DNA of 7,011 nt, from positions 1 through 7,011 of IMG/VR virus record IMGVR_UViG_2648501165_000013; one strand, written 5' to 3'. This stretch comes from a virus. Taxonomy: Duplodnaviria; Heunggongvirae; Uroviricota; Caudoviricetes. Below the pieces are notes generated by a model. It had not been told where the DNA came from. It did not search any database and was given only the letters and a program-made list of their open reading frames with translations. A program made the position numbers and the translations under genes. Positions 1 to 7,011 of this stretch are shown here, one piece after another (within the stretch, counting starts at the first letter, position 1; every line of letters starts with the position of its first letter).

Positions 1-1236
1 CTACGATAGCCGCGCATTCAACATGGCTACCTGTTCGTCGTTCATATCATCAATCCACATACCGTAAATTTCATACACCATCTGCGCAGTTTCATGCCCC
101 ATCTGGCTGGCTATAAATGCCGGGTTCGCTCCTGCCGTCAACAGCCAGCAGGCAAAAGTATGCCGCGTATGGTACGGATTACGGCGGCGAATACCAGCAC
201 GTTTTACTGCTGCATTCCACCTTGCCCCCAAACTGCTTACCGAGTAATAAGGTTTCTGTTTTCCGTTACACACCCTGGGCATGAAAACAAAATGCAGTTT
301 TTGCTTTTCGGTTCTGCCGTACTCCCGATGATAAAAGGTGATTTCGCTTTTGCGATGATGCCCGGTCAGTTTGTATTGCTCCTTCAGTGCTTCAAGAGCA
401 GGATGCAGTAATGTTACTGTCCGGATCCCGGCATTTGTTTTTGGGGGACCGAACATATCCAGTATCGTCAGGTTTCTTCTGACATTCACAGTTCCCTTCT
501 CGAAATCCACATCCTCCCACGCCAGAGCTGCCAGTTCCCCGTGACGAAGCCCGGAGTAAACGGCAAATTTCCACAAGTTTTGGCTCTGTCCTTTTTCACT
601 TTCCATTAATGCATTGAATTCTGTTTTAGATAACGGGTCAGGCTTTATTCTGTTTCGCTGTAATTTTTTTACTCCTTCAAATGGTTTGGTTGATATAAAT
701 CCCGACTGATACGCAAAACGTAACAGCGAACAGAGCAGGGCGATATAGTTATCAACTGTGCGCACGGTTCTTCCTTTTTTGTTGGATCTTGGATTATCCA
801 GGTAAAGCGTTTCTCCATGCAGCAGTTCATTCCGGTAGTTTAAGATATCGCTATAACGAATATATGATATCGGGGTACTTTCACAAATTATTATTCTGAG
901 TGTTTTTAATTGTGATTTCGTTTTCTTCATTGTGTTTGTTGTTAACTCTGTCTCTTTAATTTTTGTCCAGATATCACAAAGCTCCCCGAACGTTTTTATG
1001 ACTCTCGTTGTCACCATTTTTGCCCCAGTGCTGGACTGGGGAAAACGTCTTAAATACTCAAATTCACCGGAGTTTATTTCATGAACTATCAGCGCTCTTA
1101 AATTTCCGGCCTTTTTAATATTACTGTTTGTAATCTCCCAGCCTTTTAATGTTTCCCGACATCGTTTTCCTCGAAACATGAACCAGATGCGAATGTTTCT
1201 ACCTCTAATCTCGACACCTGTTGGTAATTTAGACAT
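1..1236 (-). CDS. intR: Tyrosine-type site-specific integrase, Rac prophage IntR-like (411 aa)
   Basis: Complete minus-strand ORF (ATG at 1236-1234, TAG at 3-1). Translation starts MSKLPTGVEIRGRNIRIWF and has C-terminal tyrosine-recombinase signatures (GLRHGEL, HTRHTFA, GHETAQMVYEIY with a candidate catalytic Tyr). Matches my recollection of E. coli K-12 Rac IntR. Its start lies 1 nt past the xisR stop, suggesting translational coupling. Confidence 0.92.
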   Translation of the reverse strand: MSKLPTGVEIRGRNIRIWFMFRGKRCRETLKGWEITNSNIKKAGNLRALIVHEINSGEFEYLRRFPQSSTGAKMVTTRVIKTFGELCDIWTKIKETELTTNTMKKTKSQLKTLRIIICESTPISYIRYSDILNYRNELLHGETLYLDNPRSNKKGRTVRTVDNYIALLCSLLRFAYQSGFISTKPFEGVKKLQRNRIKPDPLSKTEFNALMESEKGQSQNLWKFAVYSGLRHGELAALAWEDVDFEKGTVNVRRNLTILDMFGPPKTNAGIRTVTLLHPALEALKEQYKLTGHHRKSEITFYHREYGRTEKQKLHFVFMPRVCNGKQKPYYSVSSLGARWNAAVKRAGIRRRNPYHTRHTFACWLLTAGANPAFIASQMGHETAQMVYEIYGMWIDDMNDEQVAMLNARLS

Positions 1237-1237
1237 A

Positions 1238-1453
1238 TCATGAGTCTTTGATAAACTGATTTATCTTTGGATAGTTGTACCAGATAATCCCTCGTTTGCT
1301 GTCTGGCTTACCTAAAGGAGATACTCGTTTGAAGTGGAAGCCCTCCACCCAACAGTTCTGGCGGTATGCTTCAATTTGTCTGGCCCCCAGACCAGTGCGA
1401 AGCATCAGGCCGTATTCAACCATCCACTCTTCATTAAAGATTACTTGTGCCAT
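1238..1453 (-). CDS. xisR: Excisionase-like protein, XisR/YdaQ (71 aa)
   Basis: Minus-strand ORF translating [71 protein letters not shown], ending TGA at 1240-1238. ATG at 1453-1451 is preceded by GAGGTGA about 5 nt upstream. The ORF-track version (to 1477) starts at a TTG with no better ribosome-binding site, so the ATG is preferred. Position directly upstream of intR fits an excisionase. Confidence 0.8.
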
Positions 1454-1467
1454 CGCATCACCTCTGG

Positions 1468-1500
1468 CAGGCGCCAATGTTAGACTGAAATTGACGCCTG
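1468..1500. promoter_or_regulatory. Imperfect inverted repeat (11-bp arms, 11-bp spacer) in the xisR-intR upstream region
   Basis: caggcgccaat (1468-1478) and attgacgcctg (1490-1500) are reverse complements with one mismatch. The repeat sits 15-47 nt upstream of the xisR start, in the only sizeable intergenic gap (1454-1552). No T-run follows on either strand, so an operator is more likely than a terminator. Confidence 0.25.
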
Positions 1501-1552
1501 ATGTTGATTATTAATAATCAGCTATGAAGTTTTAATTTGAATACAATGCAAT

Positions 1553-1712
1553 TCACGAGGACTGAAGTTTCTCGCAATTAAAATTTATCAGTTTTACTTT
1601 CTGCTCTCTGGAAACGCCTGCTTCTTTTTTACCTGAGAGCATTTTTTCGCATTCTGATTTCGTTAGTTTAGATTTTGAATATCTTGTCCAGTTAGTAGGA
1701 GTGCCACCTTCC
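1553..1712 (-). CDS. Small hypothetical protein at the position of Rac ydaC; 5' end lost in the N run
   Basis: Minus-strand frame open from the N run down to TGA at 1555-1553, translating ...EGGTPTNWTRYSKSKLTKSECEKMLSGKKEAGVSREQKVKLINFNCEKLQSS. It lies between ralR and xisR as ydaC does in K-12 Rac. The start codon cannot be located because 1713-1722 is N. I do not recognise the protein sequence itself. Confidence 0.5.
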
Positions 1713-1722
1713 NNNNNNNNNN
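1713..1722. other. Run of 10 N (gap or masked bases)
   Basis: Ten consecutive n characters; separates the ydaC-position ORF from the ralR stop. Confidence 1.
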
Positions 1723-1735
1723 TGTAGCGGTAATT

Positions 1736-1942
1736 TTATACATGAACGCCTCCATTAATATTTTCAGTGGTTCGTTTATCCCATCTTTCGAGCGCTTCTT
1801 TTTCACTTCCACCATAGCCAGTTCGGGATTCGCATCCGTTGCATTTTGCCCGGTAATATCATGAAATGTCTTTCACCGTTACTGATGGACAACCACAAAA
1901 CGGACATGGTTTAACATCGTCATATCTCAAAGTTTTTGTCAT
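1736..1942 (-). pseudogene. ralR: ralR (Lar-family restriction-alleviation protein / RalR DNase toxin) interrupted by an in-frame TGA at codon 28
   Basis: Minus-strand frame from ATG 1942-1940 reads MTKTLRYDDVKPCPFCGCPSVTVKDIS, then TGA (1861-1859), then continues in the same frame as YYRAKCNGCESRTGYGGSEKEALERWDKRTTENINGGVHV to TAA at 1738-1736. Cys pairs on both sides of the stop (CPFCGC and CNGC) indicate one ancestral 68-codon gene. An alternative in-frame ATG at 1969-1967 has a better ribosome-binding site. Confidence 0.7.
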
Positions 1943-1986
1943 AAAAACTATCTCACGTTGGCGGTGCATTACACCGCCTGGCTGAA

Positions 1987-2796
1987 TTATTCTTCTGAAT
2001 TATCGATTACACTGTATTCCCCGGTTAATACAGAGGAGTCTGCCGGATCGATTGTCAGTGGTTCCTTTTCATCCATTGATACTGCACGCTGGATTTCAAT
2101 TGAGACAGGCAGGTATTTAAACAGGCGACGAATAGCCGTTTTTTTTGCCATTTCTTCCCAGTGAGTTACCCACGGCCCGTTATTACCTGCCTTACTCTGG
2201 CTGCGCACCAGTTCAATCTGTTTGCGCGTCATAACTTCAAACTGAGTCCCTCCGTCTTTCAGTCTTGCGACAGCATAGACGTGGGTCACTGGTGCATCTT
2301 CGTTTTCTCCCGGGCGGTGTATTAACTTTTCATCAAGGCCAAATTCGAAGCTAAACTCGTCACCTTCACGGACAACACGGGCTGACAGGCTGGCGATTTG
2401 ACCAGAACGGCGAGCCAGATCAATCATGCCGCGATAGCCAATGATTAGCTGAACGTTCTTTTTACCGCTCTTTTCGTTTTTATTACCAAAAGGCAGTAAA
2501 TATGCGTGGCCAAGGGCGCTACCTGGCTCAAGGCCGAGCTGTGAACACTGTACGATTGCACTGACAAAACTCATAGTGTCACAGTTTCCTAACGCTGGAA
2601 CGTTACGAATTTCTGTGGTGGCGATACGGATCATACGTTCAGCCGTCATATGGCGTGGAAGAGCTGCTGCCAGTTGCTCTTTCATTGATGGCTGGTTAAT
2701 AAAACTAATCACGTCGTTATTTTTAACTGCTGCTGGTGCACGGTTTCCCTGAGTTTTTTGCAGATCGGCTTTTGCGATTGGTGGTTGCTTAGTCAT
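1987..2796 (-). CDS. recT: RecT single-strand annealing protein (269 aa)
   Basis: Minus-strand ORF translating [50 protein letters not shown]...VIDNSEE, matching my recollection of K-12 RecT. ATG at 2796-2794 is preceded by AGGA. The start overlaps the recE stop (ATGACTAA); the ORF-track N-terminal extension to 2853 is recE 3' sequence in another frame. Confidence 0.95.
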
Positions 2797-3798
2797 TTGC
2801 ATATTCCTTAGCCCAGCGGGGCAGTGATAACGTCTTAATAGCTGGCCATTCATCGGTATTGAGGCAGTCAGCCAGGGTCCTCAGATTGCGGTGATATTCC
2901 TGCTGGCCTGCCAGTTTTGCTTCTTCGCCCATCATGAAAATCTCAATCGGGTAACGTCCGCATTCAACAGTTGTGCTGGCAACCAGAAAAACGAAAGTTG
3001 GCAGCACACCAAACTGTGCTTCATAACCGTCACTGTAGAATGCATCCTGAACGTGATAGCGGTAGTCGTAATAAGCCGTTTTGAATCGTTGAATATCCGC
3101 TGTGGTTTTCACGTCCATGATCCAGTGAAATTCAGGAATAATTTTGTCCGGACGGCACCGACACAAAATTCCTGTTTCCGGATCTTCCCAGTAAATTGAT
3201 GATTCAGCGTGTCCGGCGCTTTCCACAAGCCATTGACCCAGCGGCAAAGCCATAACGCTCTGATACATGAGTTCAATTTTCCGGCCTTCTTCGGCAGTGA
3301 TAACCGTTTTTCCTGTGCTTGCGCATTCCATCAGAAACGCTTTCTCTTCTTCTTTTCCGGCGTTTGTACGGCGGTTAAATTCAGGTGCTACGATAAAGCG
3401 GTTACTGAATTCTTCCGGTTCAAGTACACGGCAGTGGAAAGCGGTTCCTAAATCGAGCGTTTTTGTCTTTGTGGTGTCCACAGGGGCATTTTTACGCCAC
3501 AAATACAGCGCCGGAGTATCAGCAATGTCGTCGAGCTGAGACTTACTGACACCGGGACCCGCGTGGTAATTCTCATTCGAAATTCCGTAATAAATACCAG
3601 GCTCTATGTCTCCTGCGATTACGGGATCTGCGACTTCGCCAGTTTCATCACTGCAATCGCGATGCAGATCGCTGCCAGCATTCTCATTGTGCGGATGTTC
3701 AGGGCCTTCCATTTCCTCCGGCTCTTTTTCCTGAGATTCATCCAGATTTTCTTCATTAAAGGTTTCCTGATACGTTGCGTCGCCCATCACCGCACCAC
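2789..3798 (-). CDS. recE: recE 3' portion: exonuclease VIII C-terminal nuclease domain (about 336 codons); 5' side ends at an N run
   Basis: Minus-strand frame reads [60 protein letters not shown]...[24 protein letters not shown]...[11 protein letters not shown], ending TAA at 2791-2789. The PDK...IMDVK pattern fits a PD-(D/E)XK nuclease and the C-terminal sequence matches my recollection of K-12 RecE. Upstream of 3799 the ORF-track frame is not RecE. Confidence 0.9.
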
Positions 3799-3808
3799 NN
3801 NNNNNNNN
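3799..3808. other. Run of 10 N (gap or masked bases)
   Basis: Ten n characters exactly at the switch from recE sequence to bet sequence. Confidence 1.
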
Positions 3809-3950
3809 GCAGTGCGATAAACTGCGCATCGCTGGCATTGCCTTTAAATGCCGTCTGGCGAAGAGTGGCGATCAGTTCCTGCGGGTCGACAGTATCCATG
3901 CCGACACGTTCAGCCAGCTTCCCGGCCAGTGTTGCAAGTGCTGTACTCAT
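3809..3950 (-). pseudogene. bet: 5' fragment of bet (lambda Red-beta family annealing protein), first 47 codons only
   Basis: ATG at 3950-3948 with GAGGT about 9 nt upstream. Translation MSTALATLAGKLAERVGMDTVDPQELIATLRQTAFKGNASDAQFIAL matches the lambda Bet N-terminus as I recall it. The frame runs into the N run and then continues out of frame over recE sequence ([13 protein letters not shown], stop at 3758-3756). Confidence 0.8.
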
Positions 3951-3955
3951 TTGTT

Positions 3956-4255
3956 TTATACCTCTGAATCAATATCAACCTGGTGGTGAGCAATGGTTTC
4001 AACCATGTACCGGATGTGTTCTGCCATGCGTTCCTGAAATTCAACATCGTCATCAAATGCGCGACTGATTGCCTGTTTGCTGGCACCGTGGCGTTGCAAA
4101 TGGTCGATGCAGAGCGATTCAAACAGGTGCTGAGGCAGACCTTTTTCCAGGTCGTCCGCCAGTTCCGTTTCTTTTTCTTCGCGAACGATCTTCTGGTAGT
4201 GGCGTGACCATGCCAGCTCTTCAATGCGATCAAAAATCGGGCATGTGCTCATCAT
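3956..4255 (-). CDS. gam: Gam-like RecBCD inhibitor, short GamS-type form (99 aa)
   Basis: Minus-strand ORF translating [99 protein letters not shown]. The C-terminal 75 residues are near-identical to lambda Gam as I recall it; the N-terminus is divergent. A stop lies two codons upstream in frame, and the gene ends 5 nt before the bet ATG, the same gam-then-bet order as lambda. Confidence 0.85.
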
Positions 4256-4373
4256 CTGTTACCCCAAAATTTTCAAGTTTGTTTGCGATCATCATTGCAA
4301 TACCCGGAATTAATGGCGCTGAGGCTATACCTGCAGGATTCGCACATAAACCGTAAACCGCCGCAATCACCAC
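4230..4373 (-). CDS. Hypothetical small hydrophobic protein (47 aa if GTG start) overlapping the gam start; may instead be the C-terminal tail of a longer recE-like ORF
   Basis: Frame reads [47 protein letters not shown] to TGA at 4232-4230. It has a transmembrane-like hydrophobic core and overlaps gam by 26 nt, the position kil occupies in lambda. There is no in-frame ATG with a ribosome-binding site; the frame is continuous upstream with the recE-like RDCSDETGE codons. Confidence 0.3.
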
Positions 4374-4444
4374 TTGTCTTTTCCAGTCGAGTTTTTCTAA
4401 TGATGAAGCTGTTGCTTCGCCAGTTTCATCACTGCAATCGCGAT

Positions 4445-4454
4445 NNNNNNNNNN
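4445..4454. other. Run of 10 N (gap or masked bases)
   Basis: Ten n characters inside the recE-like acidic linker, between VRENE and RDCSDETGE. Confidence 1.
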
Positions 4455-4556
4455 CTCATTTTCCCGAACTTCAACCTGATTCTCGTCATCGAATGTTTCC
4501 TGATATGTTGCGTCGCCCATCACCGCACCACAGTCAGGGCAGTTATCCCCGCCAGA

Positions 4557-4719
4557 CTGACCGCAGGCGGTGCAAACTTTCTCCGTTTCCTGTTGTTGCA
4601 CTACTGGCTCAGGCTGTTTCGTTTCTGGCTCGTTTTGTTGCGTATTTTGGTCGTTCTGTTCCGTTTCTGGCTGATTCTGGTATATAGAGTCGCGGGTCTG
4701 GATCCCCTTAACCCATTTC
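4557..4719. repeat. Diverged direct repeat, copy 2 of a ~160-bp recE module ([10 protein letters not shown]...CTACGQ)
   Basis: Aligns to 4731-4890 with a 3-bp length difference and roughly 75% amino-acid identity ([54 protein letters not shown] versus [53 protein letters not shown]). Confidence 0.8.
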
Positions 4720-4729
4720 NNNNNNNNNN
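4720..4729. other. Run of 10 N (gap or masked bases)
   Basis: Ten n characters exactly between the two copies of the ~160-bp module. Confidence 1.
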
Positions 4730-4730
4730 T

Positions 4731-4890
4731 CTGACCGCAGGCATTGCAGACTATTTCCGGTTTCTGTTGCACTACTGGTTCAGGTTGTTTCACATCCGGG
4801 CTGGTTTTTACAGTTTCTGGCGTGTTTTGTTCCGTTTCTGGCTGGTTCTGGTACACAGAGTCGCGAGTCTGGATCCCCTTTACCCATTTC
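4731..4890. repeat. Diverged direct repeat, copy 1 of the ~160-bp recE module ([10 protein letters not shown]...CNACGQ)
   Basis: See its partner at 4557-4719. Confidence 0.8.
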
Positions 4891-4914
4891 GGATCGTTCG
4901 GGTCGCTAATCCCT

Positions 4915-5706
4915 TCAACGAACTCACCACGCGAAGCAGCCAGTAATTTGTCTGCATCGACAGGATTTTTGGGCGGAATGTTTTTCCGGGCTTCATGGAG
5001 TTCTGCCCGCAGTTTCTGATATTTTTCATCAACAGAATTTACCTGTGACTGAGCATCCAGCGGCTGCGTGTCCTGATGATGTTCAGTTGCATCCGGTTCC
5101 ACTGTTTCAGCCGTTGCCTGTTCATCTGCCATTGCGCAAGATGGTTGCAGTTTTTCTTCATCATCCTGTTTTTCTTCTTCTGTTACACGCTGCGGCATCG
5201 GGGCAGAGGAACGACCGCAGGCAATATCCACGATTTCTGGATCAGGGTTGGCATGATCAGTTTCAGTCAGTACTTTGTTCAGATATTCAGTGACGTGCGC
5301 GGGGATGACCTCGATCCCAATTGGTGCTTCTTTCACGGACGCAACCACGATGGCGCGGGAATAATCCAGCCCGCCAGGCATGGTGATGAATTTGTCGCGG
5401 AAAACAGAAAAGGGTGGTTTATTTTCAGCGATAATTTCCTCGACACGTTTAGCGTGTGCCGGATGAAGGTTATAAATGTCCACGTCCATTGAACGAGCCA
5501 GTACGCCAGTGGCTACGTCGCGCGCCAGTGACGTCAGATCGTGAACGAAACCTTCGCCGCGATCGGTGAGGTTCCCGCCGCCAGCATTAGCGCCGGAAGC
5601 CGTGCGCGTGATGCGTGAAACACGATTTCCTTTTCGCCATTCTTTTGTCAGAAGACCGCGATCAATGTGTTCGGTATCCAGCCAGGCTGAAATGAAATTC
5701 TTAAAT
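4915..5706. repeat. Direct repeat copy A (~792 bp) of recE coding sequence
   Basis: Aligns base for base at an offset of 802 with 5717-6508. About 475 bp (4936-5410) is essentially identical (one difference seen), the next ~300 bp is about 93% identical, and 4915-4935 differs at every third position (wobble sites). The plus-strand ORF-track entries 5045..5293 and 5847..6095 have identical translations. Confidence 0.95.
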
Positions 5707-7011
5707 NNNNNNNNNNTCAACAAATTCTCCGCGAGAGGCAGCCAGTAATTTGTCTGTATCGACAGGATTTTTGGGCGGAATGTTTTTCCGGGCTTCATGG
5801 AGTTCTGCCCGCAGTTTCTGATATTTTTCATCAACAGAATTTACCTGTGACTGAGCATCCAGCGGCTGCGTGTCCTGATGATGTTCAGTTGCATCCGGTT
5901 CCACTGTTTCAGCCGTTGCCTGTTCATCTGCCATTGCGCAAGATGGTTGCAGTTTTTCTTCATCATCCTGTTTTTCTTCTTCTGTTACACGCTGCGGCAT
6001 CGGGGCAGAGGAACGACCGCAGGCAATATCCACGATTTCTGGATCAGGGTTGGCATGATCAGTTTCAGTCAGTACTTTGTTCAGATATTCAGTGACGTGC
6101 GCGGGGATGACCTCGATCCCAATTGGTGCTTCTTTCACGGACGCAACCACGATGGCGCGGGAATAATCCAGCCCGCCAGGCATGGTGATGAATTTGTCGC
6201 GGAAAACAGAAAAGGGCGGTTTATTTTCAGCGATAATTTCCTCAATGCGTTTAGCGTGTGCCGGATGAAGGTTATAGATGTCCACGTCCATTGAACGGGC
6301 CAGAATGCCAGTGGCTACGTCGCGGGCCAGCGACGCCTGATCATGAACGAAACCTTCGCCGCGATCGGTAAGGTTCCCGCCGCCTGCATTAGCACCGGAA
6401 TCTGTGCGAGTGATGCGTGAAACACGATTCCCTTTTCGCCATTCTTTTGTTAGAAGACCGCGATCAATGTGTTCGGTGTCCAGCCAGGCTGAAATGAAAT
6501 TCTTAAATTCATAGGGCTGATGTTTTTTCGTGATAGAGAAAACTGCCTTAATTGCATCAGTCAGGCGGAGCAGGGCGGCATTATCCAGAGTTGTCGGTTC
6601 TGCCATGCCGCGTATGGCCAACAGCAGATTCTGGACATAGCTGTTTTCCTGATCCATCTCAAGAGCAGTAATGTGTTTGCGTTGTTCACGGGTGGCATGA
6701 TGCAGGTATTTCCGATCCCCGGCCGCATACGTAAAAATGTGCAGAAGACGCTGTGTGAACCGCAAAGTGGCTACAGAGACTTCGCAATCCTGGCAATCCC
6801 CGTGGGCGTCTGCCTGCGCGTTTTCTTCCAGGCCTCCCGCCAGTTCTTTGGTTTCCTGAGCATTATCCTGGTGGTGAACGTCGTCTGGCGCTGCTCCCGG
6901 TTTTAGTTCCCAGGTCATGGAGTCTTTGCTGAGTTGATAGCGGTCACTCCAGGTAAAATCGATCTCACCTTCAGGGGGCAGGTCATTAACGACAGGAAAA
7001 TTCGTGGCAAC
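5701..7011 (-). CDS. recE: recE 5' portion (RecE N-terminal, non-nuclease region); start lies beyond the window end; frame stops at 5703-5701 just past the N run
   Basis: Minus-strand frame open from the window edge reads [43 protein letters not shown]...[42 protein letters not shown]...[11 protein letters not shown]. The conserved blocks match my recollection of K-12 RecE residues from about 60 onward; the stretch between them is a divergent allele. The frame is +1 relative to copy A, so it terminates right after the junction. Confidence 0.8.
5707..5716. other. Run of 10 N (gap or masked bases)
   Basis: Ten n characters exactly at the junction of the two ~792-bp copies. Confidence 1.
5717..6508. 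repeat. Direct repeat copy B (~792 bp) of recE coding sequence
   Basis: See copy A at 4915-5706. Confidence 0.95.

Follow-up and report, generated by a model that had tools for sequence, protein, structure and literature searches.

The DNA analysed here, a window of 7,011 nt, carries genes of E. coli lambdoid prophages and is interrupted by five N runs, each of exactly 10 N, a number that a preliminary description of the sequence had given and that direct counting bears out; no further N occurs in the 7,011 nt. The window sequence between these runs constitutes six pieces, S1 to S6, and the junctions in the window are all N runs. Comparison with closed genomes, whose reference loci (L001 for Rac, L002 and L003 for the Red-bearing prophage) come from other strains than the source, assigned the pieces to two haplotypes: haplotype A, the Rac prophage at ttcA, and haplotype B, a Rac-like prophage at yebY. 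The features are as follows.

1..1712, minus strand: S1, haplotype A; 100% identical over 1,712 nt to the Rac prophage of NZ_CP144930 (L001 3001-4712)
1-1236, minus strand: intR, in S1; Pfam Arm-DNA-bind_2 and Phage_integrase
1238-1477, minus strand: xisR, in S1; Pfam DUF1233 excisionase
In S1, minus strand: 3' part of a DUF1187 gene
1713..1722, no strand: N run 1; stands for 8 real bases (ttttcaat) within colinear Rac, L001 4713-4720 between S1 and S2
1723..3798, minus strand: S2, haplotype A; 100% identical over 2,076 nt to L001 4721-6796
1736-1930, minus strand: ralR, in S2; internal stop
1987-2796 (annotated CDS; longest ORF to 2853), minus strand: recT, in S2; Pfam RecT, E=1e-56
From 2789, minus strand: 3' third of recE with the PDDEXK nuclease domain, in S2; Pfam DUF3799/PDDEXK
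3799..3808, no strand: N run 2; probable false join of recE (haplotype A) to bet (haplotype B); in Rac, position 3798 is followed by 24 nt and then S5
3809..4444, minus strand: S3, haplotype B; 99.7% identical to L002 7001-7636 and L003 5018-5653 (bet, Gam and truncated RecE annotated)
3809-3950, minus strand: first 142 nt (47 codons) of bet, in S3
3956-4255, minus strand: gam, in S3; Pfam Gam PF06064, E=8e-57
4414/4415, minus strand: Red/recE junction, in S3, which also carries the tail of the truncated recE ORF
4415-4444, minus strand: recE sequence, last 30 nt of S3; equals 3634-3663
4445..4454, no strand: N run 3; stands for 58 real bases of haplotype B, the S3-S4 spacing being 58 nt in five closed genomes
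4455..4719, minus strand: S4, haplotype B, middle of the truncated recE; 100% identical to L002 7695-7959 and L003 5712-5976, 82% to Rac
4720..4729, no strand: N run 4; probable false join from B to A; flanks overlap by ~160 nt in reference coordinates
4730..5706, minus strand: S5, hybrid; 4730-4955 A-specific, 4956-5414 putatively collapsed core, 5415-5706 B branch
5707..5716, no strand: N run 5; probable false join; flanks overlap by 792 nt in reference coordinates
5717..7011, minus strand: S6, hybrid; 5717-5757 B-specific, 5758-6216 putatively collapsed core, 6217-6508 A branch, 6509-7011 A/B mosaic

Haplotype A, with the gene order intR-xisR-ralR-recT-recE, comprises S1 and S2 together with S5-left and S6-right. 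Identity to Rac at ttcA is 100% for S1, S2 and S5-left, S1 and S2 together matching the annotated Rac locus that adjoins ttcA, and the recET genes of Rac were recognized by the presence of RecT and RecE (the latter with an Exonuc_VIII N-terminal region and a PDDEXK C-terminal domain) beside intR at this site. Taken together, the four pieces are 99.3-100% identical to Rac of E. coli, with which they share gene order and domains; the internal stop of ralR is common to the window and the closed Rac reference. Unlike Rac, the window contains 1.7 kb of extra sequence foreign to this prophage, and the 7,011 nt of the window correspond to a haplotype A interval of only ~5,300 nt in the best 25 closed genomes.

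In haplotype B, gam-bet-exo stands in place of recT and the 3' end of recE. This haplotype comprises S3, S4, the right part of S5 and the initial 41 nt of S6; against a Rac-like prophage with Red at yebY, identity is 99.7% for S3 and 100% for S4, S6-left and S5-right. The lambda Red module consists of gam, bet and exo in a row, of which the window holds gam and the start of bet, exo lying beyond the window, after bet, in the matching closed loci. The same four pieces are found at 99.7-100% identity in the yebY prophage of E. coli 13E0780 and F2_407_2_2, where the Red/recE junction is the same as in the window; compared to that prophage, the window has only a fragment (bet 5' end, gam and part of the truncated recE), interleaved with Rac. 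In prophages of the yebY type, Red replaces recT and the RecE nuclease domain, and ~610 recE codons remain. Between haplotypes A and B, the 5' two-thirds of recE are ~80-100% identical and the DUF1187/ralR region ~92%. Both types of prophage occur in the closed genome F2_407_2_2, one at ttcA and one at yebY, ~590 kb apart; in 13E0780 haplotype B is present and the ttcA site is empty.

Junctions and distances in closed genomes

The true distances at the N runs are 8, 58 and 24 nt, or overlaps of ~160 and 792 nt, and never 10. N run 1 sits in a stretch 92% identical between both prophages, and the A/B-shared stretch of 38 nt found there equals a 30-nt overhang plus the 8 missing bases. At N run 3, the match to S3 and S4 extends over 959 nt in the closed record compared to 911 nt in the window. 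At N runs 4 and 5, the pieces written in succession occupy overlapping positions on Rac, S4 corresponding to L001 6720-6981, S5 to 6821-7797 and S6 to 7006-8300, and in haplotype B S4 is followed by 24 nt and then by S6. The breakpoints thus lie at spacers of fixed length, unlike the real distance, as is the case in assembly artefacts. As a correction to the earlier description, N run 1 is not a structural breakpoint, only 8 nt being replaced there within colinear Rac.

All repeats described from the sequence were recovered. Positions 4915-5706 and 5717-6508 are homologous over 792 nt, ungapped and with 29 differences, 23 of which fall at recE codon position 3 (6 amino-acid changes in 263 codons), in agreement with the reported wobble bias. 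Positions 4557-4719 and 4731-4890 are diverged copies with 79-82% identity and a 3-nt indel, the 30-nt identity between the end of S3 and 3634-3663 is exact, and 3722-3798 is homologous to 4455-4531 with 84% identity, a homology previously placed from position 3720. The copies had been interpreted as functional alleles. The wobble bias indeed shows past purifying selection, but the recE gene of haplotype B is devoid of the nuclease domain and annotated as a pseudogene, with a frameshift in strain 13E0780; moreover, the copies belong to paralogous prophages at two attachment sites instead of being alleles at a single locus.

Read literally, the window would contain a recE gene duplicated internally in tandem, a gam/bet cassette of the Red system adjoining recET, and both recombination systems in a single prophage. 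This arrangement would correspond to a single Rac prophage with gam/bet inserted in recE, parts of recE tandemly duplicated and five small unsequenced gaps of 10 nt. The fact that the pieces share one strand and one scaffold is compatible with it, as is the mosaic nature of lambdoid prophages, in which recE alleles recombine naturally and many mosaic alleles are seen. It is nevertheless hardly credible. The S2/S3 adjacency, which brings the 3' end of recE next to bet, was found in none of 5,426 closed E. coli genomes when 3300-4100 was used as query and one place covering at least 80% of it was required, and full-window matches span ~5,300 nt. Likewise, no closed genome with a contiguous junction was found that would correspond to a genuine tandem duplication or insertion in recE. 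The real gap distances (8, 58, 24 nt or negative, and not 10) also argue against this arrangement, as do the identity of each piece, at 99.7-100%, to one of two separate prophages, the position of every junction at the edge of A/B-shared sequence, with 30-nt overhangs at three of five right ends, and a patchwork consensus linked at distances of 30 nt or less (see below).

By contrast, the pieces have counterparts at 99.7-100% identity in either Rac at ttcA or the yebY prophage, and their written adjacency is absent from closed genomes, which indicates separate loci. The comparison with closed genomes reveals a separate Rac at ttcA and a Red-bearing prophage at yebY, both types being present in F2_407_2_2. 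This mapping supports the earlier suggestion of a single scaffold into which two related prophages bearing recE or Red had been collapsed. The overlap of the pieces in reference coordinates and the missing S2/S3 adjacency further agree with the view that no single contiguous locus contains the duplications and the gam/bet insertion. Rather than simply following each other end to end, as had been supposed, the contigs are interleaved in the order A, A, B, B, A/B, B/A. The recE duplications, the gam/bet cassette beside recET and the dual-system prophage: very probably, none of these is real.

Hybrid contigs and patchwork consensus

As A/B hybrids, S5 and S6 are exact reciprocals of each other across a putatively collapsed stretch of 459 nt, the S6 core (5758-6216) being identical to the S5 core (4956-5414). 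S5-left is 100% identical to L001 and 82% to L003, and S5-right is 100% identical to L003 and 92.8% to L001; conversely, S6-left is 100% identical to L003 and 85% to L001, and S6-right 99.4% to L001 and 96.5% to L003. The end of S6 (6509-7011) corresponds to the 5' region of recE and appears to be a collapsed mosaic; the Pfam domain Exonuc_VIII is found in S6. As written, S5 and S6 reach only 97.2% and 98.7%, respectively, in their best match among the 5,426 closed genomes. When the branches are swapped, S6-left followed by the core and S5-right is 99.4% identical to F2_407_2_2, in which this sequence begins 24 nt after S4.

The window was then compared with the A and B references at each site that distinguishes them in 5717-7011. 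At all 51 sites (51/51), the window is in the A or the B state and never in a private one. The single-consensus stretches contain 22 discriminating sites, none of them private, and the core flips between A and B four times. Site pairs separated by 30 nt or less are in the same state in 9 cases out of 9, whereas 7 of the 11 pairs more than 30 nt apart are switched (Fisher p=0.005); no switch occurs over less than 33 nt, and no link extends beyond 30 nt. Both haplotypes are therefore represented, with variants linked only within k, a patchwork of the kind that assembly artefacts produce. The mosaic consensus has no match above 98.9% in the 5,426 closed genomes, a 58-mer spanning one A/B switch is absent from genome_contigs and viral_contigs, and an N-spanning pattern has no match in genome_contigs. 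A further IMG/VR probe, spanning only B-state sites, retrieved 36 ordinary alleles, none of which exceeds 98.9% over the core.

The right ends of S1, S3 and S5 each extend exactly 30 nt into A/B-shared sequence (past the last distinguishing base for S1 and S5), and the left ends of S2 and S5 coincide with the first A-specific base, so that three of five right ends and two of five left ends fit; the left end of S3 was outside this test, as bet has no counterpart in haplotype A. A simple two-copy model with k=31 for all ten contig ends fits these five exactly and fails at the right ends of S2 and S4 (overhangs of 25 and 9 nt) and at the left ends of S4 and S6, which begin 3 and 5 nt before the first variant. 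To account for these misfits one has to invoke low coverage, trimming or one more related copy; the sum at S2 and S5, where 5 + 19 = 24 nt are missing, would follow from a third related prophage. The 30-nt overhangs and the switching only beyond 30 nt are, as far as can be read from the sequence, signatures of a k≈31 de Bruijn graph.

The reciprocity of S5 and S6 could also reflect a real event in addition to the scaffolding artefact, the two contigs being the junctions of a reciprocal recE crossover between the ttcA and yebY prophages that would have inverted ~0.55-0.6 Mb around the replication terminus. In closed genomes these prophages are in inverted orientation, ~550-590 kb apart, and the most similar stretch is where crossovers are expected. 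However, the joining stretch is itself a bubble-popped mosaic with its four A/B flips, which left the assembler without phasing information at that place, neither hybrid occurs in the 5,426 closed genomes, and the S5-type marker pair gave 0 matches in IMG/VR, which together make such a crossover quite unlikely. The hybrids are probably due to mis-threading across the collapsed stretch. The S6-type marker pair was found in 16 IMG/VR loci, which carry more distant recE alleles, mostly 89-97% identical to S6; these markers are not haplotype-specific and the result therefore says nothing either way.

Probable interleaving of two prophages in the assembly

These observations very probably reflect an artefact of short-read scaffolding, in which two related E. 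coli prophages have been interleaved and glued by 10-N spacers. The source genome would carry two paralogous lambdoid prophages, A at ttcA and B at yebY. In a de Bruijn graph with k ~31, densely diverged stretches would yield separate allele-specific nodes, and sparsely diverged ones a single consensus in which each bubble is randomly resolved to A or B. The scaffolder would then have ordered all nodes by estimated position and written a fixed 10-N spacer wherever the estimated gap was small or negative. The interleaved order resulting from this process would create the fake gam/bet insertion, the fake 160-nt repeat and the fake 792-nt tandem duplication. The true path of haplotype A would be S1, 8 nt, S2, 24 nt, S5 (4730-5414) and then S6 (6217-7011), and that of haplotype B would run from exo and bet (S3) through 58 nt, S4, 24 nt and S6 (5717-6216) to S5 (5415-5706) and beyond. 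In Velvet, the default maximum k is 31 and gaps below 10 nt are written as 10 N, and we infer an assembler of this type; a literature search found no documentation of the 10-N convention of particular assemblers.

Alternatively, a Rac-bearing reference might have dictated the order of the contigs, which would have been arranged by mapped start and strung together with 10 N, and not joined by a de novo paired-end scaffolder. The starts of the pieces on Rac are indeed strictly increasing (3001, 4721, ~6632, 6720, 6821 and 7006). On the other hand, S3 shares only 30 nt with Rac and is nonetheless correctly placed beside its true neighbour S4, and S2 and S5 begin directly with the first allele-specific base and lack the k-1 prefix usual for stand-alone contigs, which indicates joining inside the graph. 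Reference-guided ordering is accordingly considered very improbable, and the locus is an artefact under either mode of joining.

Instead of belonging to one genome, the two haplotypes might represent different strains, present together in a mixed culture or in a metagenome bin. In favour of a mixture, no closed genome in the collection was seen with both the exact A and the exact B allele, and 13E0780 has B with an empty ttcA site. Yet the attachment sites of A and B differ, F2_407_2_2, a closed genome, contains both, many genomes contain 2-4 recE copies, and S1 and S2 (3.8 kb) show no mosaicism and are 100% identical to one haplotype. A mixture of strains therefore seems unlikely, and two paralogous prophages of a single genome would better account for the scaffold.

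The biological interest of the locus is low, and its main value is as a warning. Where E. coli draft scaffolds show 10-N runs in prophage regions, paralogous prophages may have been interleaved, and such scaffolds can hold a chimeric consensus even between gaps. Here, 4956-5414 and 6509-7011 mix two haplotypes, and allele calls, recombination inferences and gene models drawn from such regions should therefore be distrusted. The window resembles the tangled short-read de Bruijn scaffolds of multi-prophage E. coli drafts in its fixed N spacers, overlapping flanks, k-1 overhangs at three of five right ends, bubble-popped mosaic consensus and small contigs (265-977 nt) in paralogous prophage. It shows no biological difference from other such scaffolds and is distinguished by an unusually clean graph logic (k ~31), readable from sequence alone.

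Pieces of the window and their gene content

The N content of the window consists of exactly five runs of 10 N each (1713-1722, 3799-3808, 4445-4454, 4720-4729 and 5707-5716), which separate six pieces, S1 to S6. The preliminary description had listed five such runs, with every structural breakpoint at one of them, and a set of repeats at their flanks; all of these runs and repeats were recovered. The segments 4915-5706 and 5717-6508 form a 792-nt pair without gaps that carries 29 differences, 4557-4719 and 4731-4890 are 79-82% identical, 3722-3798 and 4455-4531 are 84% identical, and 3634-3663 and 4415-4444 are identical. The copies had been said to differ mainly at wobble positions; the 792-nt pair agrees with this, 23 of its 29 differences falling at recE codon position 3 and only 6 of 263 codons being changed. 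Genes were identified from Pfam and closed-genome annotation, and all of them lie on the minus strand.

Table. Pieces of the window and their matches on the Rac prophage at ttcA (haplotype A, reference L001, NZ_CP144930)
S1: 1-1712; L001 3001-4712, 100%
S2: 1723-3798; L001 4721-6796, 100%
S3: 3809-4444; L001 6632-6661, last 30 nt only
S4: 4455-4719; L001 6720-6981, 82%
S5: 4730-5706; L001 6821-7797, 97.2%
S6: 5717-7011; L001 7006-8300, 98.7%
Genes of S1-S2 (-): intR, xisR, DUF1187 gene, ralR (internal stop), recT, RecE PDDEXK C-terminal domain
Genes of S3 (-): bet 5' end and complete gam
Genes of S4-S6 (-): RecE middle and N-terminal (Exonuc_VIII) regions

Codon 24 of ralR (1736-1930, minus strand) is an in-frame stop. 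It is also present in the closed reference of 100% identity, whose ralR PGAP labels a pseudogene.

Two Rac-like prophages in closed genomes

A comparison of the whole window with 5,426 complete E. coli genomes gave best matches that consisted of several overlapping pieces and took up only some 5,300 nt of the record, the usual distance from intR to recE in the Rac prophage adjoining ttcA. The coordinates on L001 therefore show that the pieces overlap on the reference. The first N run stands in for 8 real bases (ttttcaat). In five closed genomes, S3 and S4 together matched another locus at 99.2-99.8%, where 58 nt separate them. This locus is a Rac-like prophage integrated beside yebY (haplotype B; references L002, strain 13E0780, and L003, strain F2_407_2_2), with the gene order int-xis-DUF1187-ralR-exo-bet-gam followed by a recE lacking its 3' end, which PGAP calls incomplete and which is also frameshifted in 13E0780. 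What looked like a gam/bet "insertion" is therefore a second prophage's recombination module.

That the window is a real contiguous locus, as written, is very unlikely: its pieces overlap in reference coordinates, S3 and S4 belong to the second prophage, and the S2/S3 join (query 3300-4100) was covered over at least 80% at no place in any of the 5,426 closed genomes, the best matches reaching 62% and comprising nothing but the Rac part. These results bear out the proposals that two related prophages were collapsed into one scaffold, the pieces mapping to Rac and to the yebY prophage, and that the duplications and the gam/bet insertion do not form one contiguous locus.

In the closed genome of F2_407_2_2, the yebY site is occupied by the B prophage (about 2.569-2.58 Mb) and the ttcA site by a Rac-like prophage (recE-recT-ralR-xisR-intR; 3.159-3.166 Mb), the two lying in opposite orientation and ~590 kb apart. 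A-type and B-type prophages can thus share one genome. A mixed sample is an unlikely origin of the two haplotypes and is not needed. In 13E0780, B is present and the ttcA site is empty, uspF lying directly beside ttcA (L054 35422-36967). The ttcA prophage of F2_407_2_2 is full-length, with tail and terminase genes, and its intR is split by IS903B (L056 9008-11309; NZ_CP074756 3164007-3166308).

The yebY prophage is itself a natural module swap, in which recT and the RecE nuclease domain are replaced by a lambda-type gam-bet-exo; its ralR copy is intact. Only 17 of the 5,426 closed genomes showed this arrangement across 80% or more of the S3+S4 query.

Red/recE junction region: window 4230-4444 (junction 4414/4415); L002 7148-9438; L003 5165-7454

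The recE remnant of L003 is open over 671 codons, made of ~610 RecE codons and a 61-codon new tail that overlaps the start of gam; its 13E0780 counterpart is frameshifted.

S5 and S6 as reciprocal hybrids

Neither S5 nor S6 as a whole reaches 99% identity in any of the 5,426 closed genomes. The two pieces share an identical stretch of 459 nt, the core (4956-5414 and 5758-6216), at which they were divided, the parts being compared with L001 (A) and L003 (B).

Table. Identity of the parts flanking the core
S5-left: 4730-4955; A 100%, B 82%
S5-right: 5415-5706; A 92.8%, B 100%
S6-left: 5717-5757; A 85%, B 100%
S6-right: 6217-7011; A 99.4%, B 96.5%

With the halves exchanged, S6-left + core + S5-right is 99.4% identical to F2_407_2_2, in a match that begins exactly 24 nt past the end of the S4 match. 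From these identities and this match, the real paths are S1 -8- S2 -24- S5-left - core - S6-right for A and S3 -58- S4 -24- S6-left - core - S5-right for B, the numbers being nucleotides between pieces, and the order of the window interleaves the two. Beyond the preliminary description, sequence comparison supplies the prophage identities and attachment sites, the true paths and the missing bases, together with the hybrid nature of S5 and S6, a chimeric consensus between the gaps and a signature of k ~31. The structure itself holds no new biology.

The two closed B-type prophages differ from each other at the equivalent of 5717-5757: 13E0780 has a Rac-like variant (L002 7984-8024) and F2_407_2_2 the variant of S6-left (L003 6001-6041), so recE alleles are naturally mosaic at such a scale, as IMG/VR alleles also show.

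Assembly signature

The right ends of S1, S3 and S5 lie exactly 30 nt beyond the final base at which A and B differ, and the left ends of S2 and S5 coincide with the first base specific to A. The stretch common to A and B at the first gap is 38 nt, the sum of a 30-nt overhang and the 8 missing bases. Such overhangs look like node boundaries of a k=31 de Bruijn graph whose nodes were chained without their k-1 prefix. There are 51 sites in 5717-7011 at which the two references disagree; at all of them the window has the A or the B state, and at none a private state. Where a single consensus exists (core and 6509-7011), patches of A states alternate with patches of B states: neighbouring sites at most 30 nt apart share the same state in 9 of 9 cases, and among those separated by more than 30 nt the state changes in 7 of 11 (shortest switch 33 nt, longest link 30 nt; Fisher p=0.005). 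This patchwork is the result expected from independent bubble popping at k of about 31, and the 459-nt core, identical in S5 and S6, is thus one chimeric, collapsed consensus that stands in the window two times. The mosaic core has no match above 98.9% in the closed genomes, though each variant occurs in A or B, and a 58-mer across one switch was absent from GTDB representative genomes and IMG/VR. Both the 30-nt overhangs and the patchwork consensus argue further against a real locus.

A true inversion between the two inverted prophages, with S5 and S6 as its junctions, would also yield reciprocal hybrids; it is nevertheless improbable, since the stretch joining the halves is an unphased mosaic and mis-threading accounts for the hybrids more simply. 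The sorted order of the pieces would also follow from reference-guided concatenation, but S3 has just 30 nt in common with Rac and the absent k-1 prefixes indicate that the pieces were joined within the graph. Under either mode of joining, the window is still an artefact.

In Velvet, k is limited to 31 by default and a scaffold gap estimated at less than 10 nt is written as 10 N, a behaviour that would fit the N runs, the overhangs and the patchwork; a literature search for this k/10-N convention found no documentation. Four boundaries (3798, 4455, 4719 and 5717) depart from the two-copy k=31 model, the overhangs of S2 and S4 being 25 and 9 nt and the starts of S4 and S6 a few nt early; these would need a third related copy, low coverage or trimming. 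Between S2 and S5, the 25-nt overhang and the 24 missing nt (5 + 19) would fit a third recE-like copy differing 5 nt upstream of the C/T site at 3773, a hint that the source genome may carry a third prophage of this kind.

S3 differs from both closed B references solely at two adjacent gam bases (3986-3987), which give His for Arg at Gam residue 90. The change may be genuine in the strain, or a bubble may have been resolved toward another Gam-bearing prophage.
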